DNA of 63,943 bases, filler included, from Folioceros fuciformis (Eukaryota): NCBI GenBank assembly GCA_049999805.1. It is 8 parts of 8 records of this genome, joined end to end, with 100 filler letters (N's around TTAATTAATTAA, not from the genome) between each part and the next. Parts side by side here need not be neighbours in the genome. Positions count along the whole stretch, not along the records: positions 48,919 to 57,856 come from JBNGIO010005313.1; 7 more parts are not named here. The stretch is one strand, 5' to 3'. This document shows, piece after piece, positions 11,101 to 57,856 of the stretch (the first letter of the stretch is position 1; each line of letters opens with the position of its first letter). A model generated the notes under the pieces. The model was given only the letters and a program-made list of their open reading frames with translations. It searched no databases and was not told the DNA's origin. A program made the position numbers and the translations under genes.

Positions 11101-11647
11101 TAATGGGCTGTTGTGCGAGATTCTCGGCAAGCTCACCGTCACCTATGCTCATGATTGGGATAGGAAGCTCCATTCAACCTTGTGGGCGTATAGGACTACT
11201 GAGAAGGTTACTGCCCAGCAAACCCCTTATTACCTCACCTCTGGACACTCATCGATCATGCCCATCGTATTTGAGGTACCTACCTTGAGAATGCAGGAGA
11301 GCAATCGATTGCCCGTGGAGGAGAGCCAGCTAGAGAGGCTAACCAGTTTTGTGCAGCATGATGAGAATAGGGAACGGGCCTTGGCTGTTTTCCTTGATGT
11401 TCAGGAGAGGAGGAAGAAGTGGCACGACCAGAAGTTGCGTAAACAAGAATATGTTGTGCCTGGAGATTTAGCCTTGTTATATGACAATAGGTACATGCAC
11501 TTTCCAGGTAAGCTGCACTTGAGATGGATGGGACCTTACAAGATGCTGGAAGTGTATGAGAATGGGTCCATCCAACTGCAGCACCATAACAGCCCTAACT
11601 TGCCAACTAGGGTTAATGGCTGGCGGGTGAAGAAATATTATCAGTAG
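8150..11647 (+). mobile_element. Ty3/Gypsy non-chromovirus pol (protease C-terminus, RT, RNase H, integrase); 5' truncated, one in-frame stop
   Basis: Protease end YDILLGKTWL; RT FLDGYSGYNQ and FIDD; RH VYVDVS and EREAL; INT HHCC (H-x6-H...CDAC), WGIDFVGP, SDRG, GLTE; ends RVNGWRVKKY with no chromodomain. TAG at 8846-8848 replaces the Tyr seen in the related copy (SKYL). Confidence 0.95.
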
Positions 11648-12867
11648 TTGGCGAGGACGCCAACAAATGAGAAGGGGAGTATGTGGACTCCACATGCTGA
11701 ATAGGTCCTTGGAAAATGGTAGGATTTCTCTTTTTGGGAATCTCTAAGTGAACCCTGTGGTGAAATGGTTAAAAGATTAGGTTAGATTAATAGCTAGATT
11801 AATGGTGAGGTGAGACGCGTCCTTGAAGGGTTGCTGAAATGATCTGAGAGAAGGGATGGAATGATTTGAGAGAGGAGGGAGAGTGTTGAGAGGCACTGAC
11901 CATTTTGGTAGTCTTGAGAGGTTGGTCAATTTTGGTAAGGGCACCCAGTGGTGTCCATGGGACACAACCCCTATTAGGTCAGAACTAGGTTTGGGTTAAA
12001 GTTAGGGTTAGGTCAGAGTAAGGTTTAGGTCAGAATTAGGGGTGGCTTAGGTCAGAGAGAGATTGCTGGGTGGTTGACTGAGGCTAACCCTAATAGATAG
12101 AGATGGAGGTTTGGGCCAAGGTAGTATAAGAGGCTAGACCTGCCATTGAGGAGGGGGCTGTCTACGGTGCGATTTCCCTGGACCTTGGGTGCAGAACTCT
12201 TGGCTTAGGGCGCTGAGCTGGTTGAGACTAAACTAAGGTCCTGATTTCCCTTGCCACTAGGGGAACGTGGAGGATCCCAAGACTGCCAAGATTCTTGTGG
12301 CCGGATCCGCAATGGCTAACCACCTTGCATGGTAGCTGAGGTGAGGTTGCAGGGCCATGAGCCAAGGAGGCTACCCAGCCCTAGGCCTCGCCTTTGCCTT
12401 GAAGGCTGCAAGAGGGAAGGCTGTTGTGTTCCAAATTGCAGGAGAGAAGGGTTGAGTTGCAGATTTTGGAACTGTTGAAGTGAGGAGTTGAGCTGAAGTG
12501 AGGGGCTGGAGGGTGAACTGAAGTGCTGAAGTGAAGGACTGAAATGCTGGGGTGAAGTACTGAAGTGGTGGAATGAAGTGTTGAAGCTGGAGTGAGGAGC
12601 TAGCTGAAGTTGAGGTTCTCGTTCAACTGCGGAGGTAGCTAGCACTAGGTGCTGAGAGTTGGAGGCCAGACTTGGGCTGGAGCCTCCTCTCAGCACTGAA
12701 GTGATTGATACTTGGAGCTGGAAACGAGGGCTGAAGACAATGCTGGAGTTCTCATTTTGTTGAGGCTGGGGTTGGTGTTGTGGTAGGAGCCGAAGATAGG
12801 ACCGAGAATTCTGATCTATTGCTGTAGCAGTTGGTATATGCTGATAGATAGGGTGAGATTAGGGGGA

Positions 12868-18413: not shown

Positions 18414-20519
18414 CTACAGTTGGTTTTGCTCTCCAACCAGAAAACTATGCACAACTCCATCATTATCAGTCCACCAGCTCTCGCCCGGTAGCTTCCATGC
18501 CTTAATTCCTAGTCTCCTTGCCTGCATCTCAGCAGCTTGCTCCCACATCTGGACACAGATGTATATATTCGACATAGTTACATATGCTGTCGCGTCTTTC
18601 TCATCAAGCTTCACTGCCTCATCGAAAGCAAACCTTCCCACCTCCACGTTCTTCCACTTTCGACAAGCACCCAACAGGTTGTGCCAAAGTGCAGAGTTGG
18701 GTGTTACAGGCAACGTCCTTGCCAACACTAGAGCTTCATTCAGTCGACCTGCCCGTCCAAGGAGATCGACCATGCACGTGTAGTGCTCTACCGTGGGAGA
18801 AATGCCGTAGACTTTGCTCATAACCTCAAAGTATTCCTTCCCCTTGTTCACTAGGCCCGCATGACTGCATACTGCTAGGACACTGAGAAAGGTGACCCCA
18901 ACCGGCTGTATGCCATCCTCCAGCATCTCTTGGACTAAATCAAAGACCTCTTCACTGTCCCCTTGGCAACTGTAACCTGCTATCAACGCACTCCAGGCAA
19001 CAACATCTCTTTCCAGCATTGCATCAAACACCTGCTGTGCATCCACCACACTCCCAGCCTTCCCATACATGTTTATCAAACTGCCAGCTACAAACACGTC
19101 AGTTTGAAGGCCTTGTTGTTCAATTCGTGCATGTAGCAGTCTTCCTTGATGCAAAGCTGCCACATTTGCACATGCCTGCAGAAGATAAACAAAGGTCACA
19201 CAATCAGGTGAAGCGATCCCTTCTAATTCCATTGCATGATAAAGATTAAGGGCTTTTTGACCCATGCTATGCTGGGAGTAGCCTGCTATTAAGGCATTCC
19301 AAGTCACGACATCCTTTTGAGCAAGTCCGTCAAACACTCTATGAGCATCCTCTAGACTCCCACACTTTGAGTACATATTAACCAAACTGTTAGCTACAAA
19401 CCCATCATCTTGATGCCCTCGTTCTTTAATTCGAGTGTGAAGCTCCTTCCCAATCTCCAAAGCCGGAGTCCCCACACATGCGCATGCCTGCAGAAGGCAC
19501 AGAAAAGTCACAGAGTCGGGTACAGAGATGTCATCATCTTGCATAGCACTATAGAGGCGGAGAGCTTCCAAGCCCATGCCCTGCTGGGAATACCCGGCAA
19601 TCATGGCATTCCACGTCACAGCATCTTTCCTATCAAGTCCGTCAAACACTCCTTGGGCTTCCTCTAAGTTGCCACACTTTGCATACATGTCCACCAAGCA
19701 GCTGCAGACAAACACATCAGGCTCAGTCCCACTGGCCATCACATCGGCATGCACAAGCTGCCCAGCTTTCAAATCCAATCCCCTCGTACAGGCTTGAAGG
19801 GCTGCGACGTAGACATGACCATCTGGCTGTACACTTGATCTGCGCATCCTGCGATAAAATTGTAAAGCCTGCTTGTCTTGCCCGTATTTAACATGGGCTG
19901 AAATGAGGGAGGACCACATGAAGGCATCTGGTTTCGCAACCGCGTCAAATACATCTATCGCGTCTTGCAACCTGCCATGAGAAGCATACATTCGCAGGAT
20001 GTGGTTGCCCAAGAAGGTGTCCGACTCGTATCCCCCTTTCACCGTCAAGGCATGAACTAGGCGACCTAACATTAGATCTTTTCGGACTACACATTTCTTT
20101 AAGACAACATAAATGAGATCTTTGGCAATACAAGAGTTTGTCTGCACGAGAATCCCCAAGGCCTCGACAGCCTGAGTGAGCAGGCCCTGATCACATAACC
20201 AGCTTACGGTTTCAGGCATGTCAGAATCACTCGCCAGGCTCCAGGCCGCATCCAGCAAGGCTGTCTTCGAGGAGTCGATATTGCACGAAAGCCCTGGATG
20301 CCGATCCAATTGTCGCCGAACAAGCTCTTGCGAGCGACATGCCGCACGTACAACCACACACTCTCTGGAACTGGCTAGGGATCTTGCTGAGCTAATGAAC
20401 CACCTCGATTGGTATGGTTGGTCGCCTGGATTCAGGTGAGCCGAACCCTTTCCTCCTAGGCCACCTGTTAACCCACCGCTTAGGCTGGTCCACGAAAATT
20501 GACCGCTCCAGACACTCAT
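18414..20519 (-). CDS. PLS-class PPR protein with E1/E2 and truncated WW-type DYW start (organellar RNA editing factor)
   Basis: P-L-S triplets (LVDMYAKCG, VTWNAMIAGY, TFLCLLQAC), HYTCMVDLLGRAG, and C-terminal KLPGESWWTD..VVHSFLVG. Intronless; first ATG at 20519; transit-peptide-like N-terminus. Confidence 0.96.
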   Translation of the reverse strand: MSVWSGQFSWTSLSGGLTGGLGGKGSAHLNPGDQPYQSRWFISSARSLASSRECVVVRAACRSQELVRRQLDRHPGLSCNIDSSKTALLDAAWSLASDSDMPETVSWLCDQGLLTQAVEALGILVQTNSCIAKDLIYVVLKKCVVRKDLMLGRLVHALTVKGGYESDTFLGNHILRMYASHGRLQDAIDVFDAVAKPDAFMWSSLISAHVKYGQDKQALQFYRRMRRSSVQPDGHVYVAALQACTRGLDLKAGQLVHADVMASGTEPDVFVCSCLVDMYAKCGNLEEAQGVFDGLDRKDAVTWNAMIAGYSQQGMGLEALRLYSAMQDDDISVPDSVTFLCLLQACACVGTPALEIGKELHTRIKERGHQDDGFVANSLVNMYSKCGSLEDAHRVFDGLAQKDVVTWNALIAGYSQHSMGQKALNLYHAMELEGIASPDCVTFVYLLQACANVAALHQGRLLHARIEQQGLQTDVFVAGSLINMYGKAGSVVDAQQVFDAMLERDVVAWSALIAGYSCQGDSEEVFDLVQEMLEDGIQPVGVTFLSVLAVCSHAGLVNKGKEYFEVMSKVYGISPTVEHYTCMVDLLGRAGRLNEALVLARTLPVTPNSALWHNLLGACRKWKNVEVGRFAFDEAVKLDEKDATAYVTMSNIYICVQMWEQAAEMQARRLGIKAWKLPGESWWTDNDGVVHSFLVGEQNQL

Positions 20520-21798
20520 AGCTAAGCTCTTAACATGCACAGACCGACTCCCTAGAGCCCTTCAGCAGGCATGAGATTTTGTCAAGATTTCACTATTCAT
20601 CCGAAACTACACAGATCTGTCTAGTATCTTCATGAGAGCCCGGAAGAACTCGTCATCCAGGTCATTGCAGCTAAGTATTCCGAAGTCGCGCCCTTGACAA
20701 GGCGGTGCTTAGAAGGCGTGCACCACTCGACATGGGACACTACGGTGGAGAAGACTTGAAGCCTGCTGACCCTGCCCAGCTGAAGACTTAATTCCGGAAT
20801 AGGGTTTTCCATAACTGTCCGGAATGTCTTGTGCAGCTGCACAAGGCAGTCAGGAAAGAAGTCTCCACCTACAACAGGGCCCATACTTCAAGCACCGTCT
20901 ACTCACAGCAAGCAGCGACGGCATGAGATCCGGGACAGGCTGAACGAGCTGAAAGTACTTGGCTGGGACGGCTTGGATGACGAGCAGTTCAAGGCCCTCG
21001 TGGGATCACTTGTCACGAAGATGAATCATTGCGGACTACTAGACCAGGAAGCACACCATGGCAGCTTACACAGGAACCACATTTGAAGTACGGGTCACCG
21101 TCTGAAGGACCACGCAGCACTGTGGACGGAGATTTCGGGCACTTCCGTACGGGCCATTCTATGGAGCAAAGATGGCCTAGAGCTTCCCTTTCAAAGAACA
21201 CAGTCCGCACAGCTCGCACGACCACTTCTATCCTCACCAGGCTGCTCACCTGTCAGCCCATGATAATAAGAAATAGTGTGTCCAACAAGGCAACAACGTA
21301 TGTATGTATGCACGCGTATCATGAAACAGCCAGCCGCGTAGCCAGACGCAGAGAAGTGCTCCGTGACAAGCGCTAAGCCGAGCCTCTTGGACCGCCGAGC
21401 CTCTTAGAGCCGCCGAGCTCTTCGCAAAATCCCCAGAGAGCTGTTGCAATATACAGAGAGTCGACAGGCGACAAATCAGTTACATGCAGCGTCATGTAGA
21501 CTATAGCTACCAATCTAGGATACGGGAATATCAACCCGCAAGTAAGAAAAATAATCCTTCACAAGCGCACCGTGCAGGATGGAGAACCAGAGGCAACGAT
21601 AATGCCAACCATGGCCTATTATCTTTCCCAAGAACAACATCCAGTACATGTCGTGAACGGTCTACGAGGTGCCAGATGAAGAATGCAAGAAAACCAAGTA
21701 TCAGAGCTCCAGCGATGCTGCTAAGACCAAAACGCCGAAGCCTACAGCTAACATGAAGGCTTCGGCACAGCCAAAATAAATCCTGAAGGGGGCAGGAG

Positions 21799-24070: not shown

Positions 24071-26413
24071 CTGTCGCTACGGCGGTTCCTCTTCCTCCGA
24101 GCCTGGCTGACCTTCTGGCTACTCTCAACCCTTGTAGAGGTTCCTCCTCCCTCACCAGTAACCTGTTCATCGAACTCTCCCTCTTCTACTGTATGTACAG
24201 CAGCAATCAACTCCTCATCAGGAAACTTGTCATCCGTTTCTCTAACCTTCCCTTTGGTTTTGAGTCTAGAAACAAAGTCAGCATTAACATGGCTCTTCCC
24301 TGCTCTTGTTTCCACCTCAAAATCAAACTCCTGCAACAAGAGAATCCACCTAGCGATCCTCCCCGATAGGTCAGGCTTGTTCACAAGATACTTCAAAGCA
24401 AAGTGGTCCACATGAAATACTACCTTGCAAGCTAGAAGGTAGTGACGGAACTTCTTACAAGCGTAGATGATGCCCAAAGCTTCTCTCTCCGTTGTGGAGT
24501 AATTCCTCTCCGCATCCGTGAGTTGCCTTCCGGCATAGAAGATAGGATGATCCCTCTTCTTGTCGTCTTGTTGGCTGAGGATGGCCCCTATAGCATAGGC
24601 TGACACATCCACATACACATGAAAGGTCTTCTCCCAATTTGGTGGGCTCAATGTGGGTGCTGCCACCAAACTCCTCTTCAAGTCCTGAAACGCTTCCTCC
24701 CTCTCCGGGGTCCACTCATACAGCACATCCTTCTTCGTTAGCTGGGTCAAAGCTGCCACCTTCTTAGCGAAGTCCTTGATGAATCTCCTGTAGTAACCCA
24801 CCAACCCAATGAAAGCTCTAACCTGTCTCACGCTCTGAGGTGCATCCATCTTCGAGATGATCTTCACCTTTTCCATGTCGACTTGCAACCCCCTGGCTGA
24901 AACTCTATGGGCTAGCAAGATACCCTCCGTCATGCAAAAGAAACACTTCCCCGGATGCAACTTGAGGTTAGTCTCCCTACACCTCTGCAAGCACTTCCTC
25001 AGCTGTTCCAAGTGTAGGTACCTCCTTCCAAAGACACAAAAGTCATCCAAGAACACCTCCATGAACTTCCGAAGGAACTCCTTGAAAATGGTATTCACCA
25101 CCCGCTGAAAAGTTGCCGGAGCATTGCAGAGCCCAAAAGGCAACTTGGTGTAGGCGTAGGTCCCCCAATCAGTTGTGAAAGTCGTCTTGTCGCGATCCTC
25201 CTCCCGCAGTGTGATCTGATTGTAACCTGAATACCCATCTAGGAAACTGTACATCTCATGTCCAGCAACTGTGTCCAACACACTGTCCATGAAAGGGAGT
25301 GGATGATGGTCTTTCTTGGTCGCCTCATTGAGCTTCCTGAAGTCCTGGCAAACCCTCACCTTGCCAACTTGCTTCTTAGGCACCACCACAATTGGAGCTA
25401 CCCACTCACTAGTTAGGACAGGATAGATGACTCCAGCCTCCAAGTATTGATCCAACTGCTCCTTCACAACCATGGAGTACTTTGGGTTCAATCGGTATTG
25501 CTTCACCCGAACCGGTGTGCTTTCCTCCTTGAGATCTATCCTATGAACACCCAGCTCCTCCGGAACACCTGTCATGTCCGTCACCTTGAAGGCAAACACA
25601 TCCAAATATTCAGTCAATAGTGCCTTCAAACCTACCTTCTCCTTGGGTGTGAGGTACTTGGACACCTTGACCTTCTTCCCTGGGATCAACTCCATGTCCT
25701 CGACAGCATCAGGATCCACGTAAACTCCTTCGTGACTACTCCCTACACTTGTTCCTGATCCTTCTTCTGGGAAATCATAGTCATAGGCTTTCCCCTTCCA
25801 AAAGGCAGCTCCTTCCCTTTGTTCTTCATCCTCCTGTGGATCTTCATTCTCCACCACTTCAGTATGGAAACAAGTCACCTCTTGACCCAAATCCACCATC
25901 CTGACAGTATGCCCTACTCCCTTGTAGGCTCCTGTACTGCTGGAAGTGCTACCTCCAGCACTACCGGATGTGTACCCGGGGATGGTGCTGCTGTTTCTCC
26001 CCCATAGGGAGCTTTGCTCCACGAGACAAATGAAACCTCAGCAGGTCCTGTAGGTTTAGACCTAAAGGTCACACCTTTCCTGCCAAAATCAAACACACAA
26101 GTTGTCCCATACAACCACGGTCTCCCAAGGAGCACCTTGTACCCTAGGTCAGACACTGGCCTCATGACAATGTAGGTTAGCTTGAACATGATCCCTCCTA
26201 TCACCGTGGGCACATCCTTCAACACTCCTAGAGGCTTCCTCTTGGTCTGATTTGCCATCCGAAGGTACACGCGGATAGGGTCAAACTCCGTGAACCCCAA
26301 ACTATGGGCTGTGTCCTCCGTCATGAGGTTGACACCAGACCCCGTATCCAACGGTACATCCGGTACCAGACAACCTGCAATCTCCACCTCTATTTCAGGA
26401 GCTCCACAATCAT
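24071..26413 (-). mobile_element. Ty3/Gypsy pol fragment (protease-RT-RNase H), same clade as the 8150-11647 element; frameshift near 26000
   Basis: PLDTGSGVNLM and VLLGRPWL (protease); FLDGYSGYNQ and FLDD (RT); VYVDVS and TEREALG (RH). Cut by the linker gap. Confidence 0.95.
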
Positions 26414-28416
26414 GAAGAACATCTCCATCAACAGAGTTCACCTCGTCACGGTTGACACTCTGACTTGCCTTGTTGTCGCTCTGCTTCTTCTCCTTGCCTT
26501 TGTCCTTCTTGAACTTCTCGCAGTCCCTTCTAATGTGACCCTTCTTGTGACAATGGTAACACTCAACATTGTTACAACTATGAGATTTGCTACAAGAAGA
26601 ACTTCGCTCCTTGTACTTCCGCTTTGAAGTGGACCTTCTTCTCACCATGAGGGCATTGGAACCTTTCGAAGGTTCCATATTCTTCATGCTCACCTCCTCT
26701 ATTAACAGGCTACCTTCTACATTTACAATGGTAAGACCATTGGCAAGAGCGGAATTACTCAGAGCTGTACGAAAGGTGTCCCAGCTCTTTGGTAATGTGA
26801 CCAACAGAAACATAGCTCTCACGGAATCTGGGAACGAGATACCTTGAGATGAGAGCTGGTTGAAAATGGTATTGAACTCATTCAAATGATTGGACATCCT
26901 CATCCCTTCCTTCATCTTCAAGTCCACCAGCTGTTTCAACCAGTACACCTGAGAAGTTGCACTTTGCTTCTCATACAGGTCACACAACTTCTGCCATAGT
27001 TCGTAACTTGTGGTCTTGTCTTTCACGTTGAAGTAGACTCACTTCGACAATGTTAGCATGATGGTACACCTAGCAAGCTCATCTAGATCCTGCTACTCAT
27101 CCTGAGTCATGCTAACAGGTTTCACTCCTAGCAACTTGATGGGCTTGATCTGCTTCTTTTGTACTAGAACATTATATATACACTTGTTCTTTCTAGAACG
27201 GGAAGTTAGTACCATCTAACTTCTCGATATTGAACATGATGTTTTTTGAGGACGTCATGTTTCAAAATCAATGCAAATCAACCAAAAGGCTAGTTAGAAA
27301 ACGGTCAAAATGTAAGAAGTTACCCTCACAACGAAAGGGTTGTCCACAATTTAGGCCGACACGTTGGATCTAAATCCTCCAATTGAGATCTGATTCCGCC
27401 TCGCGGCCAAGATTGTTTTGGCGCCCGTGCCCTTGCTCTTGGCGTCGGCGCCCTGGCGACCGCGATCTAGCATCCACGACGTCAGTCTCGCCCGAGGTCC
27501 GGGTTCTCACCCTCGGGTTGGGTCTGCGCTCGCCAACCGGGTCAGGGCCCACCGACGCTGCTGGCGCTCGCCGGCCGAGCGACCTGCACGGCCCGGCGGC
27601 CGGGGCCTGGAGCCCTTGCCAAGGCGGCATGGGGCCGGAGGCCAGGTGCCCTTAGCGCCTGGCGTCCTGTAGGCGCCCCCAAATGGGGAGGCGCCCTTGG
27701 CGCCCGGGGGTCAGGAGCCCCCGATACGGGGCTGGCACCCTAGCAGACGCCCGCCGGGCACCCCTGGCACCTCCTGGCGCCCCCCGTAGTGGGGAGGCTG
27801 AGGGCCTGGTGCCCGCTGCCCTTGGCAGCGCCCCGCGCCTGTGATCCCGGGGCCCTTGGCGCCCGCGCACTGCGGCTCCCCGGGTGCCTGGCATCTGCAA
27901 TCGCGGCTGGCGCCCCACGCACAGGCGCTTCATGCTCCTGGTGCTCCTGGCGATCTTGAAGCTCCCTAGATGTTGCACACAGCCTAAGATCACTTCTACT
28001 CCGTGCTGCCACTCCTTGCACGGCGGGGTTCGAGACCCTCGCACCTCATTTCAGAGCCTCCCTCATGGCCTTGAGCCTCTTTCCACATCACCCACGGACA
28101 TCACCATCTTGCTTCACACCCTAGCTCTGATACCACTTGTAGGATTGCTAGAGGAGCATGGTGAAGGAGGAGAGGCAAAGAGGAGGAGAAAGAGGTCACA
28201 CTCTCGCAATAGAGTCTCTATAGCAAGGGAGCTCAAGGGGGTATTTATACCCTCTAGAAGAGCTCCCTAGGAAGCTTCACAAGAAGCGCACAAGAAGCTG
28301 CGCAAGAAGCTTCATACAGATTAGCTTAAGCTAATCTAAACTAATGGTACTTAACTAGACACTAATCTTAGACTAAACAAATTAGTCTAAGCACATTGGG
28401 CTTGAATAACCCTACA
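26414..28416 (-). mobile_element. 5' part of a Ty1/Copia element: LTR 28138-28416, Met-i PBS 28124-28135, GC-rich leader, decayed gag (~26414-27258)
   Basis: LTR TGTAGG...CCTACA; PBS TGGTATCAGAGC on the minus strand; gag IEKLDGTNF, LWQKLCDLYE, LLVTLPKSW and zinc knuckle CYHCHKKGHIRRDC. Confidence 0.92.
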
Positions 28417-30109
28417 GTGTGGCGAGATGAGCAACGAGCCTTGGGGTGCTCGATTTGATGGTGGTGGTAGTGGCTGCCCGTTCATGTGGGAAAGGGGTGC
28501 CTGGCTGCTGTATGCAGGCGCGGACGAAGTGCTGGGATTGCTGCGGGATTTGTAGCTAAAGTAGATTGGGGAGTCGGCACCTTTGCCAGTGCATCACTTG
28601 AGCCCGTGCTTATGGTGCCCGTGCCTCTGCTCCGGGCCGGTTTCTATTTGGCATCAACAGCAACAATAGACGGGGCCTGGCAAGGGTCTCGTCTTGGCCA
28701 GGCCGGATGGGCAAGGTGGGCGGCGTTGTGCCCAAGGCGGGCTGGCTGGGTGCGGGGCCCAGGCAACAACCGGGCGGCGGACCCAGCAAGCTGGCTGCCT
28801 GGCTAGGTTCAGGAGGGCAGGCGGCCTGGCAGGCAAACCCAGCTCGCTGGCCGGGGTCAGATCCCGAAGCCAGGTAGGATCCCAAGCAGTGGCCCACTGA
28901 CCTAGCTGCAAGATCCCAAGCAGTGGCCCACTGACCTAGCTGCAGGATCCCAAGCAGTGGCTCGGCTACTGAGGGTAGGCAAGCGTCCCAGCAGCGCTGA
29001 CAGTCGGCAGGTGGCCGGGGCGGATCCAAGCTAGTCGGGACCAGGGCTGGATCCGAAGGTTGGCAAGTGGTCCAGCAGCAACCGGATCCAGGCCAGGCGG
29101 GTGGCGACATGATCTGGGCAAGCATGCAGGCTCGCTGACCCGACTGGCGGATTGCGCAGGACGTTGGGGAGGATCCAGCCAGGTGGTCGGCAGGGGGGAG
29201 GTTGGATCGTGGTGGCTGGCTCCAGTGGAGGCCCAGTTGGGGGCAAGGCGTTGCGCTACAGGTAGGGGACCCATGCGGTTTCACCTTTCCCCCTGAACAG
29301 TGGGTTGGTTGCCTGATGCTGTTCAATATGTCTGATCCGAGAGTGTGGCCAGTGGGGAAGCTGGTGAAGAAGTTCCGGGGCTTCTAGCCTCACCCCGGGA
29401 TTCAGGAGCCAGAAGCAGGGGAGGATTGAGAGGCGGTAGACAGTTGCGATGGTGACCTAGTTGGAGGTAGTGCTATGTGCATGAGAGGGTAGTGCACGGG
29501 AGGGTGTATTGTCGATAGGGGCGATTTCTAGGTACTAGATATAGGCTGAACATGGCAACTGATTTGGTGACCTTCCTGCGGAAGACGGGGGATGCTTATG
29601 AGTTGCCAGGTTTGAAGGGGGAAATGTAACACGGATGGTCGGTTTCAGGGAAGCAAATGGCGGAATCCTCCCCAGAGCGCACATCCCGACCCCCCACTGG
29701 CACACGGAGCTGGCTCTATACGATCCAACGCCTTGGTGCTCTCGATTCCACCCTAACTCACCTGCCTGCGAGAGGAGGCTCTGGACAGCAGCGGTGTGGG
29801 TTGGTGGAATGGGAGCCGAGGGAAATGGGGGATCGGATAGCATGCTGCTAGCAGACGCAAGCCAGAGGCTGGCGGCCTTGAATGGGCAGTTCTATGCCCT
29901 CTCCGGGAGCGCACCCGTGTATAGGGAAGGGGTGNNNNNNNNNNNNNNNNNNNNNNNNNNNNNNNNNNNNNNNNNNNNNNNNNNNNNNNNNNNNNNNNNN
30001 NNNNNNNNNNNNNNNNNNNNNNNNNNNNNNNNNNAAGCTGGGGACAGGAGAAACACGAACACCACTGGGCTTTACTGGACTGGTTGCATCTCTCCACAGA
30101 TTGCGGAGC

Positions 30110-30260
30110 AAAGGTCTAGAAGCTAAGCGCTGCAAATGTGGAAGCCGCAGCAGTAAGAAAGGAGACCAGTTGCATGCACAAATTAGAGAGCAGGGACAGG
30201 AGGCTAATGAGTTGTGTCCAGCAGTTCAGTTAGCATTACAGCTACATGCCAGACCTTCTT
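30110..30260 (+). pseudogene. Degenerate PPR L-motif fragment
   Basis: KKGDQLHAQIREQGQEANE resembles EKGRELHAQAKERGLQA of the neighbouring WW-type PPRs. Confidence 0.45.
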
Positions 30261-30588
30261 GGCCAATATGGCTAGCAAGGGGGGGCTTGAGGATTGGAAG
30301 AAGGTGAAGGCCCTAAGGGAGTTAGGGGAGGATCTAAGGGAGTAGAGGAGAGTGTTGAGGAGCACCCCGGATTCTTACTAGTTGTGAGAGGATGACAATG
30401 TTGGATAGAGGGCAACCAGCGGTGTCCTAGGGGGGTAATGGGCAATTAGGTGCAGGGGTAGGTTAGAGTTAGGCTTTGGTTAGGCTGCNNNNNNNNNNNN
30501 NNNNNNNNNNNNNNNNNNNNNNNNNNNNNNNNTTAATTAATTAANNNNNNNNNNNNNNNNNNNNNNNNNNNNNNNNNNNNNNNNNNNN

Positions 30589-48025: not shown

Positions 48026-48920
48026 CTCCAAAGTTTGGGGTAGTAGTTTGTTTTGGTTGAAAAAGGGTTAATAGTGGTATGGTTTGGTTTTCTTTTTCTA
48101 CTTATTTTTCCTTTTTTTTTCTTTTTTTTCTGGTCATTTTTCCTATTTTTCTTTGTGCTAATTAAGTTAATTAACTAGGAAATAGTTGGTTTGGTTATTA
48201 AAGTGGGTATAGGTCTGGTCCTAGACCTGGGAAAGTTTAGGTCCGGTACCGGGCCATAGGGTTGGGAAAGTTTGAGTCTAGGTCTGGTGATTAGTTTAAT
48301 ATTAATTAAATATGTATAATAATCAAATGATTAAATAATAATAGAATAATATACAATAAATAAAATAATGGTCTGAATATAGGAACGGGAATATGTGGGG
48401 TATGTTAGTGTCAGGGGTTAGGGTCTGACGTCAGGCTGGCTGATTGCCTGGCTGGCTTGAACGGTCATGGAGGTTGTGCCCTAGGTAGGGCTAGAGGTAG
48501 GGGTTGAGGCTGCCCCCCCCCCCTTTCTCCCTTTCTCCTTCCTCCTCCATTCCCTTCTTGTCCTGCTTCCTCTTCTTCCCCTTCCCTCTCCATCTCCTTG
48601 TCCTGCTTCTTCTTTTGGATCCACATTGCAGGTAGACCGGGTGATGGGACTGAGGGCAAACACAGAAGGAGCATGAGGCGAGCTACAGGATTTGGCTGAT
48701 GTAAGGCCAGGCCTGCCTCCGTCTTCTCCCTGATTTCTTTCCCTTTCCCCTCCTACCCTATCCCGATTTCCTCCCCAATCTACAGCCCTGCTGCTAGATC
48801 TGCCTTGCTCCCGCTGCTNNNNNNNNNNNNNNNNNNNNNNNNNNNNNNNNNNNNNNNNNNNNTTAATTAATTAANNNNNNNNNNNNNNNNNNNNNNNNNN
48901 NNNNNNNNNNNNNNNNNNGT

Positions 48921-49880
48921 TATCTATAATGCGACAACAGTGGGGAAGCACAATAGATGACTACTCATCGTTTACAGGAGCTCCGCAGCAGGTTTCCCAC
49001 ACAATTGCCAGAGTCAGCATTGGCTACCACTTTCGCAGCATTGCCTCCATACGTCATGTACATCCAACAAGGCCATATCCATGTTTTGGGACCCATCGAC
49101 GTGCTGATTGCTGGTTGGGAATGCCAAGGGTTCTTGCAAGCAAGCACGTAAGTCGAGATGGAGGACTAGTACACTAGGCTTTTCCAAGACTTGCTCCAAA
49201 TCTTGGCATGGGTGTAGTAGGAGAACCCACGGTGTGGCTACCTTCTCAAGAACACCCCAGTGCAACTTAACAAAAGGGACTATGCCCGTGAGGACATGGT
49301 CGTTGTGCAGCACCATATTGGTGTTCCCTTTCTTATGGATGTTGTCCAAGTGGGGAGGTATGCGCATAGGCTATGCAACTATTGGACCAACCTCATACCT
49401 GGTTCAGTCTTGGAGCTTGCTCTTCGCAACAAGAAGTGGGATCCCACCTTGCAGCTACAAGATGTATTGGACGCAGACCATGAGCCTAGACCCGTGGTTG
49501 CTGAAAGGATTGTTAGAGGAGCATGGTGAAGGAGAGGAGAGAAGAAGAGAGGAGGAGAGGAGAAAGAGAGGTCTCATAGTGTCTCTCACAGCTCTATTGC
49601 AAAGGGAGCTCAAGAGGGTATTTATACCCTCTAGAAGAGCTCGCAAGGAAGCTTCAGAAGAAGCTCACAGGAAGCTTCAGAAGAAGCTCACAGGAAGCTA
49701 TGCAGGAAGCTTCCTAAAGATTAGCTTAAGCTAATCTGAACTAATGATACTTAATTAGACACTAATCTTAGATTAATTACATTAATCTAATTAAACTAAT
49801 CACATTAGTCTAAGCACATTGGGCTTTAATAACCCTACAGTTGCTATTGAGCAACCAATGTAGTCGTGGCCTTTAAACAT
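48921..49880 (+). pseudogene. C5 cytosine DNA methyltransferase pseudogene (retrotransposon-associated type), interrupted by a solo LTR at 49502-49839
   Basis: One frame read through stops gives YL*CD...GPIDVLIAGWECQGF (motif IV), GYLLKNTP (motif VI, ENx) and YAHRLCNYWTN (motif VIII). Confidence 0.8.
49502..49839. mobile_element. Solo LTR with 5-bp TSD GTTGC, same family as LTR 28138-28416
   Basis: TG...CCTACA termini; GTTGC at 49497-49501 and 49840-49844; shares gaggagcatggtgaaggagagg, ggtatttataccctctagaagagctc and attagcttaagctaatct with the 28138 LTR. Confidence 0.93.
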
Positions 49881-49888
49881 CATCTGCA

Positions 49889-50160
49889 ATGGCTGCTCAG
49901 GAAGATGAGGGAGAGCAAATTGACGTAGAAATCAACAATGACAAAGATTCTACCGAGACCAAATCAATGGTCGTCAATAATTTTGGAGACAGCTCCAAGG
50001 AGAAGGATAGATTTAATGGCAAGGACTATGACGTCTGGCGCCTACAAATAAGAGGAGTATTGCGCAACCGTGACCTATGGAACATCGTCAGTGAAGCATT
50101 AGAGCGCTCTGTATGAAGTACTAATGAAAAACGTACCTGGGATGCGAAAGATGAGAGCCC
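49889..50160 (+). mobile_element. Copia gag N-terminal fragment
   Basis: KEKDRFNGKDYDVWRLQIRGVLRNRDLWNIVS...TWDAKD matches the gag starts of the other Copia elements here. Confidence 0.75.
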
Positions 50161-50780
50161 AGGTATGGAGGCAAAACCCCGGGCACTGATTGCCGACGGG
50201 TTCCACCTTTAGTGGCCACACTTATCCCACTGTCATTGAGACATTGGGTTTCGTTCCCACGAAGGAGCGATGGGGTTCCTTGCTGCTGTGGATGGAGGGT
50301 CGGACTTGATCGACTCGATGATAGATTCGAGGGCTCCCCTCCAGCTCCGATCAGGAGTAGGACAGGCCTCGCTGTCCGGCGGTCAGCTGCACCTCTCTCG
50401 GTGCCCACAAACTCACTCCAGTCACTACAACGACCCTAACCTCTTAGATTTGCGACTTCCCTCACTCACTTCACTCACTCTCTCACTCCAACACCAGCAA
50501 CTACCAGCAACCAACAACGACACCACTACCTTCTACACTTCCCTACTGACTCCTCCTACCCGGCAAGAGTCACTAGACTAACCCCAAAGAAAAGGAAGAA
50601 GGGAACACACTCCCCTCTTGGGTATCTCCTCCCCACAACCTTACCAGACGCCATGAGACATGGCCGGCCTACAACACTTGTCCAAAAAGGGAACAAGAGT
50701 GGACAGGTCGAGAGAAAGATACATCCTTTACAATCAAGAGCTAGGGGGCAAGCCCCTTCACCCTGGTCATTACACCTTGT

Positions 50781-50940
50781 GATCCTACCAAACACTATAC
50801 AACCGGCAACACGCTGCCCGCGATCCTACCAGACACTGTACAGCCGGCAACACGCTGCCTGTGATCCTACCAGACATTGTACAGCCGGCAACACGCGGCT
50901 TGCGATCCTACCAGACGTTGCACAGCCGGCAACACACTGC
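50781..50940 (+). repeat. 41-bp tandem repeat x4
   Basis: gatcctaccagacactgtacagccggcaacacgc at 50781, 50822, 50863 and 50904. Confidence 0.9.
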
Positions 50941-51093
50941 AGGTCCTAAACCAAGCAGGGACATACCACAAGAGCTCATGAAGAGAGGACCTCCAAGAGC
51001 TCACGAAGGGATAGACTTACTCCCAAAGTGAATGACTCCCTCCTCCTACAGGCTCACCTGATCTTATAGGAGCCTCTCTCTCTCTTTGACTTC

Positions 51094-54000
51094 TGTTGAG
51101 TTTGTAGGCAGCGGAAGATGAGAGCCGGAGGGCGAGAAGTCTTGGGCATGCAAACTACTCAAAATGATTATTATTAACAACGAACGAAAAAGGTCTTTAA
51201 GTATCGTTTCGCTTCATCAACCACAGAACCCTAACTTATCCAGTTAGTTGACCAGTGTAGGGTTACCCCTTCAGCACTCCCTCTTAACCTAACGGCGTCA
51301 ACTGATTACGGCGTTGGCAAAAGCGGCACCACGTTCCGTTCTGTGAGGAAGCGGAAGCGCCATCGCCCAGCACTGTCGAGCTCCAGGCTCCCAAGATGGG
51401 CAGATCCACGACGGAAACCCTGGCTGTGGCGGCTCTCCTCATCGCGGTAGCTGCACTAAGCATAGGGATCCACCTTTGGACCATGACAACACGCAGTGGT
51501 CTCAAATATGGGGTGGGTACCCACAGCTGTGCACGGCCACCAAAGGAGAAGAAAAACAAGGATAAGGAGAGCAGCGCCGCCATCAGAGGAGAGGAGACAA
51601 GAATATCAGAGCTGGACGCCATTGAGAGTGGAGCAGCTGATCAAATTCGCCGGGTGGGAAAGCAAGCGGTCGGCGGAAATTGCTATAGCCAGGGTCAGGC
51701 GTGCCGAAGATGTCCTCAAGCGTCCTGAGGATACCAGCATTGAGCACGCCCGCGAACTGCTAAGGATGGCCGCCAAGGTCCCCTTGCCAATGGAATTTGT
51801 GCCGGCCACTGTGGGAATGGAAGGAAGTACTGTGGATGCTGGAGTAGAGTGATTGGATCAGGTAAGTGAAGCTTCATCCACCTGCAACAGCAAGGCCAAA
51901 GATAGAGGAGGACTGACGGACTGTGTGGGTAGACTGCAGAGAAAAAACTTGTCTGGAGAAGGAGGCAGCNNNNNNNNNNNNNNNNNNNNNNNNNNNNNNN
52001 NNNNNNNNNNNNNNNNNNNNNNNNNNNNNNNNNNNNNNNNNNNNNNNNNNNNNNNNNNNNNNNNNNNNNATTCAGACTCATCAACTGCACCAAGAGTCAG
52101 GAAACTTGATCGAAATAGGCAGAATAGTCCTGCAGTCCAAGTCCCGTCATATGTGTATGATGTTTAAACTTAGGCAGCGGCTTTGTGAAGATGTCAGAGG
52201 TATTGAGCTCGGTGTCAACATAACCGACTTTCACCATGCCGCGTGCAGATACATCTCGTATATAATGGTGTTGTATCTCAATATGTTTCGTGCGAGCATG
52301 ATACCGAGGGTTGGCAACAAGGTCAAGTGCACCAGTATTGTCGCAGAGAATAAGAGTGGGAGTAAGTTGGGGGTGACCAAGATCAGCCAAGAACTGTCGA
52401 GCCCACTCTGCCTCCTTGGAGGCCTCGGTAAGTGATTTATGTTCAGCCTCTGTCGAGGACAGGGCTATGGTAGTTTGTTTCTTACAGCTCTAGCTAACAG
52501 AAGCATTGGCCAGCAGAAAACAATAAGTAGATAAACTGCGACGGCCATCACTGTCTGAACCCCAATCTGCATCTGTGAAACCAGAAAGATGGAAAGTGCC
52601 TGTGCCGCTCCGTTTGTAGAATAACCCATACTTGTGTGTGCCCTGCAGGTAACGGAAAATACGCTTTACAGCGACCCAGTGGGGGCGTCCAGGGTTTTCC
52701 ATAAACTGGGAAGCAGTGCTGATGGCATACTGAATGTCGGGGCGAGTCCAATTAGCCACAAAAAGTAGGCTACCGACAGCATGCCTGTAAGGTACATCTG
52801 CCATATCCTGTTTAGCTTCACTGGAGGTAGGACATTGAGCAACTGTCAGTTTGATGCCCACAGCTGAGGGGGTAACAGCTGGGCGAGCCTGATCCATCTT
52901 GAACTTATGCAGGATTTCACGGATATATTTATGCTGATGGATAACAAGAAGACCTTCTTCACGAACTCGAAGAATTTGTATCCCTAAGCAAAATTTGAGA
53001 TCGCCGATATCCTTCATTTCGAGCCTGTCGCTAAGCATTTGTTTGACCTCGGCTAATAGCACTTTGCTGTTTGTGACCAGAATGACATCATCGACATATA
53101 AAGCGACTACGACGAAAGAAGTGCCTCTGGTCAACCTGTAAACGTTAGTATCTGCAGCACTCTGAACAAACGACAAGCCCAGCAGGTAAACATGGATCGT
53201 GAAATACCAGACCCTGCCAGACTATTTGAGCCCGTAGATGCATTTCAACAATTTGAGAACTTGTTTGGGATGTTGTTTACTGATATAACCTTCCGGTTGT
53301 TGCATGTACAGTTCTTCATCTAGGGAGCCATAGAGGTATGCTGTATAGACATCCATCTGCCATAAGTCCAAGTCAAACTCGGCAGCGCCAAGAGCATACG
53401 AATTGATTGGGATCGGACAACAGGAGAAAAAGTCTCCTGATAGTCCAGACCCTCTACTTGGGTAAAACCACGGGCCACGAGGGGAGCCTTATACCGGGCA
53501 ATCTTGCCCTCAGCATTCAGTTTATGCTTGAAAACCCATTTACAGGATATGGGTTTGCGGCCGGGTGGCAAGTCGACAAGAGTCCATGTCTTGTTTTTAA
53601 TCAAAGACTGATACTCGTCCTCCACAGCCGCATGCCACTGCTGGCTATCAGGTCCATTATAGGCCTCTGTCAAGGTACGTGGCTCATCTGGTATATCTGC
53701 TGGAGCAGTGTGAGTCGTAGCCGGAGCTGCCCGGTGACGGAAATCAACAGATTGATAACACGGTTCGGCCCACTGCTCAGGTGGTGGTCGGTGGCGTCCG
53801 GAACGGCGGGGAACAACTTCTTCAGGATCACGGACAACTTCTTTAGGGAAGGTAGGTGGTGTCTCAAGAGCCTCCGGTAGTTGTTCATCCAGGGTGAAAC
53901 CAAGGTCTTGCTCATCGAGAGGAGCAACATCAAGAAAATCCTCGCCAGCCTGAGCAGGAGAAAAGGGTGCCTCAAGATGGGCAAAATCCGGTCCCGCCGG

Positions 54001-57000
54001 AAGTTCTAACAGAATCTGTAGGAAGATCAGCAGGCAATTCAGCGTCCTGCATAGCCGCATCCTGGGGTCCGGCTGTCCGTTCAATATCCTGAGGATACAT
54101 GTGATAGGTAACCTGGCCTTCAGGCACAGGATACGTAGAAGCTCCCTCTGTCTCCTCAGGTATAGCCGTAGCTCCCTCTGTCTGTGGAACGTGGGCATGC
54201 AGTGGAGAGTGGGGCTCAATGAAGGTGACACTTCGTGCAAGTGACATCTTCCTTGTAGTCGGGTCATACAACCGATAAGCCTTGGACTGCTCACTATACC
54301 CTACAAAGACTAGGGCTTGAGCTCGGGGATCTAACTTTTGGCGTTTCTTTGCAGGAACAAACGCGTATGCTCGAGAACCAAATACACGTAAGTGCAACAG
54401 GCTTGGCTTCCTTTTATGCAGAACCTTATAGGGAGTTTGATTAGGAACGGAACTCGTGAGAATTCTGTTCACAATATAGGTTGCAGCAGAGATAGCTTCG
54501 GCCCAGTACACCTGAGGAAGACCTGACCAGAGCAACATGCTCCGGGTCATGGCCAGCAGAGACTGATTCTTCCTCTCAGAAACCCCGTTCTGTTGGGGTG
54601 TATACGGAACAGTAAGCTGTCGCTGAATACCCTCCGCAGTGAGATATGCATCAAATGCATCATTAACGAATTCAGTTCCGTTATCTGTACGCAAGTACTT
54701 CAATAACAAACCCGTTTGTTGTTGTACTGCAGGGAGCCATTCCTTGAAGATTTCGAGAACATCGTTCTTTCTCTGCATGGGGAAAGTCCATGTGTAACGG
54801 CTGTAGTCGTCCGTTAAGGTAAGATAGTAGTTGGAACCACCTATGGAGGGCACCTGTATCCTTCCAGAAATGTCTGCATGGACCAGGTCCAGAACATAGG
54901 TAGCTCTGTATGCAGGCGTGGAGGGAAAAGGGCGCTCCTTTTGCTTGGCTATTATGCACGCTTCACAGGACGGCAGATCCTTGAAGCAGCGGGGAAGCGG
55001 TTCCCTAAAACATTGTTTCGCAGACATGTCCAACAATCTCTGTCTGTTGGGATGTCCAAGTCTCGCGTGCCATAACAGAGCCAGCTGTTTGGTGTCCATA
55101 GTAGCTAATCCAGTACTATGTACTGTGGCAGTCTTCACAGGCAAAAGATCAAGGCAATACAAGTCATTATCAAGAAAGCCCTTGAAAATGCAAATGTCAG
55201 GAGTCACCTTCCTGTGGAAGGTGCACGTATCACCAGTGGCCTTCATCTCAAGGGTCCTCAGCTTAAGAAGCTGGCTCATGGACAATAGATTCTTCGCCAT
55301 GGCTGGTACGTACAAAACGCGTTCCAGAGTAAGATCTGAACCGTCCTTCAGTCTGAAAGTAACCTTGCCTTGTCCCTTAACTTGCAGGCTGCTATCAAGC
55401 TGTTTATCTCCGAGGAAGACCTTATCATTCTCACAACATAAGGTCAATGAAATGAAGTGAGTCTTGTTCCGACAAATATGAGCCGTGGCACCTGAATCTA
55501 GGTACCAGCTCTCTGTGCCCAGACAAGAGCTAGTCAAGCAGACTGTAAGTATCTTAACTATGTTTTTAGTATCACTGGATTTTTCCTTAACAACACTAGC
55601 CGAATTTTTGAGAGTTCGCTGCGGCTCACCAGCCCTCTTCTTCTTACACTCACGGGCCCAGTGCCCAGCAATCCCACACCAGTTACAAGTGCCTGTCCGT
55701 TTAGGTGGATTAGCAGGACTTGAATCAGACTTCTGGGTGTTGTGAAGTTTACCCTTGCCTTTGTTGGATGTGTGCCTTGCTGACAGAATCTTATCTCCCT
55801 TGGAGCGTGAGCCCCCAGATGAATGACTCCTGGCTTGTTCTTCCTGAAACAGCGGTCCGATAAGGATGTCAACTGTGTAGGTGGAAGTTCGGCCAGCTGA
55901 GGCAGTCAGGTAGGGAATATTCTGTGTGGTAATGAAGCCTTGATACGAAGGTGGCAACGTTGTAAGGAGGTGAGCAGCTGCATCCAACTCATCCATTTTC
56001 GTACCCATGCTCAAGAGTTGAGATCGGAGTTGACGAAATTTGGTGATGTGAGCAGCCATCTTCTCCCCCTCCCTCATCTTCAACGTGTAGAATTCCTGTC
56101 TTACAGCACAGAGAGACATCAAATTTTTAACTTGGTATGTACTGGCAAGTTGATCCCAAACTTGGTGTGCTCGTGTGTGGAATTCCACTGTAGGAACAAG
56201 GTCTTCATCAAGGCCATTTATAAGAAAAGCGAGGGCGATGGAATTGAGGGACAGCCAGCGCTCTACAGCAAGTGCAGATGGTGGAGGGGTGCTGTTTGGG
56301 TCCGGCTCCGGAACTGACTGGTCCACAACTCCCCAAACTCCTCGGGCTTCGAGAGCTGATCGCATGCGCACCTTCCATACTGGGTACTTGGTGCCATTAA
56401 AACGATCCTTCTCTTTCATGTCCGAGGTAAAGGTGGGGACGGGTGTTGACCGATGCCAAACCGGATGTGCAGGAAGAGGTGGAGGAGGCGGTTGTGGAGG
56501 ATTAGTGCCCATCTGGGGTACTAAGACAAGCGCCTACAACTGAGCGGAAAGTTGATCTACCAAAGAATCTAGAAGGTCAGTGTGAGCTGAACCAGAGTCG
56601 CTACTGTGTGCTGAAGTACCACCGACGTCAGAGGACGCAGAGCTGTCTGACATACGCAAGAACCCCCTCTTAGAGGTTATGACCTAGAGAAGGGCAAAGG
56701 TATGAATGACGCTACTTTGTTTGTTGTGAGTGTGCGCTAACCAGGGGAATCGCAGGGGAGGGAGCTGTCCAGACACACAAGGAGGGCCAGGCAAAGACAG
56801 AAATTGGCTGGCTCGTCGTGTGTGGCTAGACGAGTCCTTTCCCGGTGGTCCTGAAACTGTTAGTTAGGAGCGTCCGCTGGCGTTGGAACACCGCCAACCG
56901 ACAGTGACTCTGTACCTGGTGAGGCGCGGCGTCTCTGACCTCGCTCTCACGCTTTCGGCAACGTGGACGCGCCGCTCGGGCAGGTGTTGGCACAAGCCGA

Positions 57001-57856
57001 AGAGTCGTGGGGGCACACGCGACGCTTCACACCTCGCGGCTCTCAGGCAGCGGAATGTGGGTGATCGGGAAGCACTGAGGCCTGCGAGATGTTGGGTGCA
57101 GCAATCTCTAATCTCAGCAGGTAATCAGTGAGTTCCTTGATCTTCGTTGTCAATTTCTCAATTAGAGCATCAAAGATAGCTCGATTTTGCATATCACTGA
57201 CAAGAATTCTCGTGTGAAGGGATTCTGCGGTGGTAAGAATCTCCTTAAAAGAGGCGTTGAATTGGCTGGAGGCCAAGTTGTGGTGGGGATCTCGAACAGG
57301 GTCTCCACCGTTGGAATATGTCGGGTTCCCAAAATGAACCGTTCTTGGGGATTTGCAGAAAGAACCCGAGGCAGAAGGCGCATTGACTGTGCAAGATTGC
57401 CTTTGCCGCCTCTTCTTCCTTTGGTTCCTAGGGAGTCGATCTCGTCGATAGAATTGCTGAAGCAACTCAGTGCGCTCCCTATCTCGGGACCAATTCGGAT
57501 TGTGGAGGCCTGTCCCACCCGCCAGATGGTATGCCAGGGCGTTGATTTCAGCTGGAACTGTCTTAGGAACTTGAGGTAGGTTGTCGCATTTGTAGAAATG
57601 CGATCCGTGCCCCTGACTGACAGAACCGCCGCGCCAAGGCATACTTAACAACGAGAGAAGAACATCAGAACCTAGAAAACTCTGATACCATGTTGAGTTT
57701 GTAGGCAGCGGAAGATGAGAGCCGGAGGGCGAGAAGTCTTGGGCATGCAAACTACTCAAAATGATTATTATTAACAACGAACGAAGAAGGTCTTTAAGTA
57801 TCGTTTCGGTTCATCAACCACAGAACCCTAACTTATCCAGTTAGTTGACCAGTGTA
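51094..57856 (-). mobile_element. Near full-length young Copia element: 5' LTR 57691-57856 (cut by gap), PBS 57679-57690, extra leader ORF, gag-pol 56512-52097, PPT 51277-51285, 3' LTR 51094-51276
   Basis: The LTRs differ at 2 of 166 comparable bases. Motifs: CNWCGIAGHWAREC, WYLDSGATAH, WHARLGH..CEAC, RTDNGTEF, YVDD, DADW. Frameshifts near 54000 and 53385 and a stop at 52490. Confidence 0.96.
57043..57642 (-). CDS. Extra 199-aa ORF in the Copia leader, upstream of gag
   Basis: ATG 37 nt after the PBS; open frame with basic cluster RNQRKKRRQRQ and heptad-like C-terminal helix IFDALIEKLTTKIKELTDYLLRLE. Confidence 0.6.
   Translation of the reverse strand: MPWRGGSVSQGHGSHFYKCDNLPQVPKTVPAEINALAYHLAGGTGLHNPNWSRDRERTELLQQFYRRDRLPRNQRKKRRQRQSCTVNAPSASGSFCKSPRTVHFGNPTYSNGGDPVRDPHHNLASSQFNASFKEILTTAESLHTRILVSDMQNRAIFDALIEKLTTKIKELTDYLLRLEIAAPNISQASVLPDHPHSAA

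Follow-up and report, generated by a model that had tools for sequence, protein, structure and literature searches.

At the very start of the scaffold spanning positions 48919-57856 (JBNGIO010005313.1) in a stretch of the Folioceros fuciformis genome (assembly GCA_049999805.1) lies what is very probably the remnant of a cytosine DNA methyltransferase (DNMT) of a kind carried by retrotransposons, split by a solo long terminal repeat (LTR). About eight unplaced scaffolds have been artificially strung together to form the whole stretch of 63,943 nucleotides, hereafter the window. Paired 44-N runs, which enclose TTAATTAATTAA, occur eight times across it (N runs 7242-62323), and 100-N gaps are also found inside scaffolds. 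Since the scaffolds are artificially joined, features on different scaffolds are not true neighbours. The features of the locus are as follows.

48819..48918, no strand: artificial linker (44 N, TTAATTAATTAA, 44 N), at which the 5' end of the fossil is cut.
48921..49501, + strand: DNMT3-like C5-methyltransferase fossil, from just past motif I to just past motif VIII (translation, homology).
49497..49501, no strand: target-site duplication GTTGC, left copy (sequence).
49502..49839, - strand: solo LTR, TG...CA, 338 bp, very abundant family (sequence, LTR copy 28138-28416).
49840..49844, no strand: target-site duplication GTTGC, right copy (sequence).
49845..49884, + strand: methyltransferase continuation 3' of the LTR, ..A IEQPMxSWPLNII (alignment to relatives).

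Read through its stops on the + strand, 48921-49511 yields 197 residues (P0001) and reproduces exactly the string quoted in the initial annotation. Six in-frame stops interrupt this part (TAA at 48927 and 49149; TAG at 48954, 49167, 49215, and 49218). The annotation had named motifs IV, VI, and VIII of C5-methyltransferases, in the correct order and without introns, and all three could be placed: motif IV, G-W-E-C-Q, at 49113-49127, with the catalytic Cys codon at 49122-49124 and Glu in the place of Pro; motif VI, L-L-K-N-T, at 49242-49256 (K-N-T at 49248-49256), with Lys instead of Glu; and motif VIII, A-H-R-L-C-N-Y-W-T-N-L, at 49362-49394, with Cys instead of the second Arg. Their order is linear, as is that of motifs I to X in the relatives described below, and a single intronless frame is colinear with these relatives over 582 + 39 bp. 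Motif I and motifs IX/X, present in the relatives, fall outside the surviving stretch. The scaffold begins about 20 residues past the motif I position of the relatives, (E/L)LFGGxxxG, and because the fossil abuts the linker, the loss of motif I is due to assembly, not biology.

The LTR that interrupts the frame has TG..CA ends and lies between two copies of GTTGC. No internal region adjoins it, which identifies it as a solo LTR, and homology to methyltransferases resumes in frame past the duplication, so that its insertion split a formerly continuous reading frame, as had been proposed. Summed read depth reaches about 50,000 over the LTR versus tens in its flanks. Its orientation was taken from a copy at 28138-28416, 73% identical to it, which is the 5' LTR of a minus-strand element and abuts GCTCTGATACCA, which we take to be the complement of a tRNA-Met-type primer-binding site. 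That element (24071-28416) comprises the 5' LTR, Retrotran_gag_2 (a Copia-type gag), an aspartic protease, RVT_1, and RNaseH, these domains occupying 24071-28135; its open frame of about 700 amino acids (aa), with Gypsy-type RVT_1 and RNaseH, runs off the scaffold end at 24071. We considered joining the element on this scaffold (24071-30488) to the fossil and dropped the idea: the gap between its protease and reverse transcriptase, about 246 aa, is too short for a DNMT, and its reverse transcriptase matches DNMT-bearing polyproteins only slightly better than does that of a DNMT-less Gypsy element at 8849-11644.

Beyond the LTR, the counterparts of 49846-49884 in the closest relatives read ..QEKPPWFPVNII.. 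and ..QDSPPYYAANVI.. (PPWFPVNII / PPYYAANVI), and this segment carries a seventh stop, TAG at 49861. Methyltransferase homology stops at 49884, and a tblastn search with 165 relatives as queries detected no other part of a DNMT anywhere in the window. A few nucleotides on, a different sequence begins.

49889..50116, + strand: N-terminal fragment of a Copia-type gag, unrelated to the fossil (open reading frame [ORF] MAAQEDEGE...KDRFNGKDYDVWRLQ).

This ORF is similar to the beginning, a DUF4219 domain, of another gag in the window, that of the Copia element at 56533. It is not methyltransferase and marks the 3' truncation of the fossil. Its interpretation as a native part of the same element was rejected: the relatives carry gag upstream of DNMT, and the gag at 49889 is therefore an unrelated junction.

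Homologs were sought with phmmer (HMMER) in an exhaustive search of 1.84 billion representative proteins, which returned 483 matches at E<=1e-3, 207 of them at E<=1e-10, the best with an E value of 1.8e-35 over 182 residues. A word-index search with the fossil among longer proteins gave no match at E<=0.01. The single-sequence scores against Pfam and the PDB are not significant, as would be expected of a chance resemblance in a stop-riddled frame; given the strength of the best match in so large a database and the return of homology in register past the LTR, we regard chance as a practically negligible explanation.

The family to which the fossil belongs was characterised with an alignment, A2, of the fossil and 35 short-to-medium relatives (36 rows). 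PF00145 was recognised at E<=1e-3 in 28 of the 36 members, and scores among relatives include 45.5 bits (P0011), 58.4 bits (P0041), and 37.8 bits (the ORF of locus L032, below). The profile search against PF00145 proposed at the outset thus came out divided: the fossil by itself stays below threshold while its relatives are recognised, and its membership follows from transitive homology to them, not from its own score. Compared with characterised enzymes, the A2 profile scored best on DNMT3 (DNMT3A 6.4e-26, DNMT3B 1.7e-23, DNMT3C 6.9e-23) and lower on tobacco DRM (1.3e-12), M.HhaI (1e-9), and DNMT2 (about 1e-4). In these alignments motif I, motifs IV-VIII, and motifs IX-X are paired in linear order, which, together with the ranking, assigns the family to the non-rearranged DNMT3-type C5-methyltransferases.

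The Glu of motif IV, read in the initial annotation as a replacement of PC by EC, turned out to be the norm of this family. Motif IV was located in 128 of the 150 best relatives, with E-C in 83, P-C in 37, and another residue pair in 8. Hence GWEC is the normal motif IV here and not a product of decay. Conceivably, a family-wide E-C where P-C is canonical at the catalytic loop might mark altered activity or substrate.

These data also bear on the possibility that the locus derives from a host gene, DNMT3 or DRM, as a pseudogene or a dead exon. Animal DNMT3A and DNMT3B are the best relatives of solved structure, non-flowering land plants keep host DNMT3 genes (Yaari 2019, PMC6453930), and no transposable element (TE) domain is physically linked to the fossil in the window. 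However, the fossil matches retroelement polyproteins at E values of 1e-20 to 1e-25 and DNMT3A at only 0.8, it has the family-specific GWECQ motif IV, its linear motif order is unlike that of DRM, and no intron interrupts its roughly 620 bp; moreover, the genome has several diverged copies of it, and TE debris surrounds it. We therefore consider a host-gene origin highly improbable.

The initial annotation suggested checking whether matches lie inside Gypsy polyproteins, and the longer relatives bear this out. In a first Pfam set, 10 of 14 long relatives contained at least one of the domains RVT_1, RT_RNaseH, Integrase_H2C2, and rve, and a C-terminal PHD finger was present in 9 of the 14. In a second set, retroelement domains were found at E<=1e-5 in 30 of 32 relatives of at least 1000 aa, a PHD finger in 15, and PF00145 in 16. 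Pooled, 40 of 43 scanned relatives of at least 900 aa bear retroelement domains at the cut-offs used. Two domain orders recur, with reverse transcriptase (RT), integrase (INT), and protease (PR): order A, RT-RNaseH-DNMT-INT-PHD, and order B, gag(CCHC)-PR-DNMT-RT-RNaseH-INT. Thus, in otherwise similar PHD-bearing Gypsy polyproteins, the DNMT occupies two positions, after RNaseH or between protease and RT (P0008-P0151). Single relatives have extra domains, a G-patch in P0019 and a Tudor domain in P0071.

A tree built from 135 DNMT domains unites all 41 rows of order A in a single 102-row clade (SH-aLRT 99). The fossil pairs with P0002 (SH-aLRT 96) outside this clade A. Among 15 proteins scanned from the non-A side, 9 have order B, with CCHC/PR before or RT after the DNMT, and 6 have the DNMT alone. 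When short fragments were added, the fossil was placed inside a 10-row fragment clade (SH-aLRT 94) that is sister (92) to clade A; all 10 members are short predicted proteins without other domains. The trees came from a quick search, without bootstraps and without named DNMT3, DRM, or Klebsormidium references, so that the placement of the fossil is moderately supported. The only organism-labelled proteins retrieved by a word-index search with A2 come from Closterium sp. NIES-53/54 (P0290-P0297, "unnamed protein product"), whose polyproteins read CCHC-PR-DNMT-RT-RNaseH-INT, i.e., order B; the family is thus also present in zygnematophyte algae. A "Copia-DNMT3" arrangement seen in the Pfam lists of P0294 and P0296 was set aside: these look like merged models, with a Copia RT fragment followed by CCHC-PR-DNMT.

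The nearest loci to the fossil were found by a profile scan of metagenome contigs with A4, an alignment of 5 proteins, 4 of them from the fossil's 10-row clade. At least 600 stretches matched; 464 of the 600 listed encode relatives, and these related stretches (at least 464) are spread over eight metagenome data sets. We kept 80 loci that are 60-87% identical to P0139, a fragment of the fossil's clade. The fossil is 37-40% identical to them over 193 residues, with E values down to 9e-50. Alignment with the order-B polyprotein P0291 revealed RT, RNaseH, and INT colinear and on the same strand downstream of the DNMT in 55 of the 80 loci; another 20 have less than 700 nt of downstream DNA, and 5 have room for these domains and lack them. 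PR-region similarity lies upstream of the DNMT in 45 of the 80. A single alignment spans 85% or more of the DNMT region (340 residues) in 31 loci, and in 2 of these 31 the DNMT is free of stops; the majority of these plant copies are thus decayed as well.

One of the loci, L032 (contig Ga0209611_10000619), has PF00145, RVT_1, and RNaseH in one ORF of 847 aa, followed by an ORF with rve and a PHD finger. Its direct repeats (A at 3162-3453, B at 11833-12017, A at 12010-12301, and B at 12302-12486) give the layout A-coding-B-A-B. About 2.3 kb past the last repeat, the same contig contains a PPR gene with an E motif and a DYW deaminase, 67% identical over 279 residues to a Sphagnum jensenii protein (NCBI name). 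PPR editing factors of the DYW type are a hallmark of land plants, and the presence of this gene marks the L032 contig as land-plant DNA. Nucleotide similarity between the window and the L loci is almost nil (two matches, 67-71%), and the plant of the window therefore differs from the source of these loci.

It could be argued that a retrotransposon DNMT was domesticated as a stand-alone host gene family of land plants and decayed later, considering that all 10 members of the immediate clade are short and free of other domains and that the DNMT stands alone in 6 of the 15 proteins on the non-A side. Against this stand the 55 of 80 loci of the same clade in which the DNMT is colinear with PR and RT-RNaseH-INT, and the single 847-aa ORF of L032; in their light, the short clade proteins look as if genes had been predicted on elements already in decay. 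With 464 relatives among the 600 stretches listed, the copy number is likewise transposon-like. Domestication is in our view improbable, if a little less so than a host-gene origin.

On the basis of these comparisons, 48921-49501 and 49845-49884 very probably represent a pseudogenised DNMT3-type fragment of a family borne in the Pol of Ty3/Gypsy elements (Gypsy-DNMT3). This kind of element is already known; the fossil adds a member and extends the host range. Its ancestor would have been a Pol-embedded DNMT translated within the polyprotein, as in intact relatives, in an element that may have had the order of the nearest clade, which is gag-PR-DNMT-RT-RNaseH-INT-PHD. Intact relatives keep motif I, the catalytic Cys of motif IV (usually as E-C), E-N in motif VI, R-x-R in motif VIII, and motifs IX and X. 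Such enzymes have been proposed to act on the newly made cDNA of the element or on host DNA in its neighbourhood (de Mendoza et al. 2018, Nat Commun 9:1341, PMC5890265), and those of the Gypsy type may do likewise.

Several observations weigh against this reading. Alone, the fossil scores below the PF00145 cut-off (E 0.083, 12.7 bits, threshold 22), and its match to DNMT3A is weak (E about 0.8), with an alignment that already pairs motifs IV, VI, and VIII. The fossil has lost its flanks on either side, and no RT, protease, integrase, or element terminus linked to it was found in the window; its retrotransposon origin consequently rests on the relatives. The fossil's clade consists of short fragments (SH-aLRT 94/92), which leaves the link to order B resting on loci about 40% identical. 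As to enzymatic activity of the Gypsy type, KnitGypsy-Dnmt3 of the alga Klebsormidium nitens gave no methylation in yeast, a result that its authors called inconclusive (PMC5890265). Of the proposal that a retroelement lineage carried its own methylase, then, the part drawn from relatives in Gypsy polyproteins and from L032 holds, whereas the window itself adds no linkage to RT or INT.

The fossil copy is certainly inactive. It lacks its start, lost at the scaffold edge, and has seven stops, Lys for Glu in motif VI, Cys for the second Arg in motif VIII, and the solo LTR inside the frame; past the beginning of the target-recognition region, the rest has given way to the unrelated Copia gag fragment. 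The Lys in motif VI fits an inactive copy. Of the relatives, 120 of 122 have E-N in motif VI and 106 of 108 have R-x-R in motif VIII, which makes the Lys and the Cys of the fossil genuine lesions. By the family consensus, both would have arisen at a former CpG (ctc-Aag from ctc-Gag; cta-Tgc from cta-Cgc).

Sibling copies permit a closer view of the decay. Two DNA runs from a single sample, X1 and X2, yielded contigs over the DNMT part, some with 0 differences (148 and 115 nt) and others with 4-15 differences per 112-162 nt; the latter point to several diverged copies in this genome. Run X4, guessed to be RNA, does not cover the DNMT part and is uninformative either way. The stop at 49218 is C (CAG) in sibling copies, in 3 contigs of X1 (depth 76.7/104.4) and 1 of X2 (14.6/34.4), and the stops at 49149 and 49215 align with Gln in several relatives. 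Those at 48927, 48954, and 49167 align with Tyr/Phe, Arg/Lys/other, and Ser/Pro, respectively, with no clear fit to C>T change. Relative to the sibling contigs, transitions account for 39 of 54 differing places in X1 and 52 of 69 in X2, symmetric in direction. The observed/expected CpG ratio of the fossil, 0.44, is barely under the 0.56 of the window and is weak as independent evidence. C>T decay, to which most of the stops had been ascribed, thus accounts for the stop at 49218 and is consistent with the changes in motifs VI and VIII, but does not extend to "most" stops, three being unclear. At position 49437 the window has T and all X1 and X2 read contigs have C (depth 258/258 and 168.5/190), which reflects an error in the assembly or variation between strains.

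The host assignment of the window draws on a gene of another scaffold.

18417-20561, - strand: PPR protein, PLS-class, E motif, intronless, 715 aa.

Among the 120 matches listed for this protein, every named one is from an embryophyte, namely lycophytes, ferns, Ginkgo, conifers, mosses, a liverwort, and angiosperms; the top named matches belong to the lycophyte Diphasiastrum (36-45% identity). The window host is therefore a land plant, in agreement with the initial annotation. Other retroelements in the window include the Gypsy Pol without DNMT at 8849-11644 (+ strand), an open frame of 932 aa with RT-RNaseH-H2C2-rve and an RNaseH-to-integrase spacing of only about 130 aa. A 166-bp direct repeat (51094-51259 and 57691-57856, 98.8% identity) flanks the minus-strand Copia element at 52097-56533; its two copies are probably the LTRs of that element, of which the right LTR is truncated where the scaffold stops.

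Plants silence transposons chiefly by cytosine methylation, and a transposon that carries its own DNMT3 inverts that logic. The fossil, together with its abundant relatives on a contig with a PPR-E-DYW gene, indicates that the Gypsy-DNMT3 lineage reached embryophytes. Of more interest than the relic is this wider result, an abundant and occasionally open-framed relative on a land-plant contig. We tentatively propose, while considering it doubtful in its full extent, that land plants, besides streptophyte algae, host Gypsy-DNMT3 elements (PR-DNMT-RT-RNaseH-INT-PHD, with DIRS-like A-B-A-B termini), some with open DNMT-RT frames, and that transposon de novo methyltransferases may be, or recently were, active in embryophytes, possibly with better-preserved copies in this genome. 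This raises the questions of whether the lineage was inherited from an algal ancestor or transferred, whether plant copies still methylate, and whether surveys based on annotation alone miss such copies.

Searches of the open-access full-text literature turned up no account of land plants with a DNMT carried by a transposon. The Gypsy-DNMT3 type has until now been described from one charophyte alga, and in the same survey, by its supplementary spreadsheet, Selaginella and Physcomitrella have ordinary DNMT counts (PMC5890265). A 2026 preprint uses the wording "streptophytes (Gypsy-DNMT3)" (10.64898/2026.05.21.726589), and some DNMT3 members are described as embedded in retrotransposons by Sarre et al. 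2025 (PMC12344493), the supplement of which contained no relevant terms.

Among solved structures, the best relatives of the family are animal DNMT3A and DNMT3B (PDB 2qrv, 6u8p, and others), which have the same motif order and share motif VIII, AHRxR(Y/N)(F/W)W(G/T)NL, and motifs IX/X, ERxxxxG(F/Y) ... R..LG(R). These enzymes, however, are encoded by host genes, contain PWWP/ADD domains, and have P-C as motif IV, whereas the family described here mostly has E-C and resides in transposon polyproteins. The Closterium sp. NIES-53/54 polyproteins, CCHC-PR-DNMT-RT-RNaseH-INT, lie on the same non-A side of the tree as the fossil, but these zygnematophyte proteins are only 24-30% identical to it and belong to another sub-clade. 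SymbioDIRS-Dnmt3 and SymbioLINE-Dnmt of dinoflagellates are also cytosine methyltransferases captured by retrotransposons, and SymbioDIRS-Dnmt3 methylated CG de novo in yeast; their backbones are DIRS (with a tyrosine recombinase) and LINE, and their authors consider them independent acquisitions (PMC5890265). The closest likeness is to KnitGypsy-Dnmt3, a streptophyte LTR Gypsy element whose Pol includes a DNMT3-type domain that is intronless and non-rearranged (PMC5890265). The A-coding-B-A-B layout, given for DIRS elements and ascribed also to KnitGypsy-Dnmt3, is by the published legends common to it and L032 (PMC5890265). The likeness is drawn from published description and has its limits: the host of KnitGypsy-Dnmt3 is a charophyte alga and its counterpart here a dead fragment in a land plant, and the PHD finger that relatives of the fossil carry is not mentioned in the text of the paper on KnitGypsy-Dnmt3 (PMC5890265).

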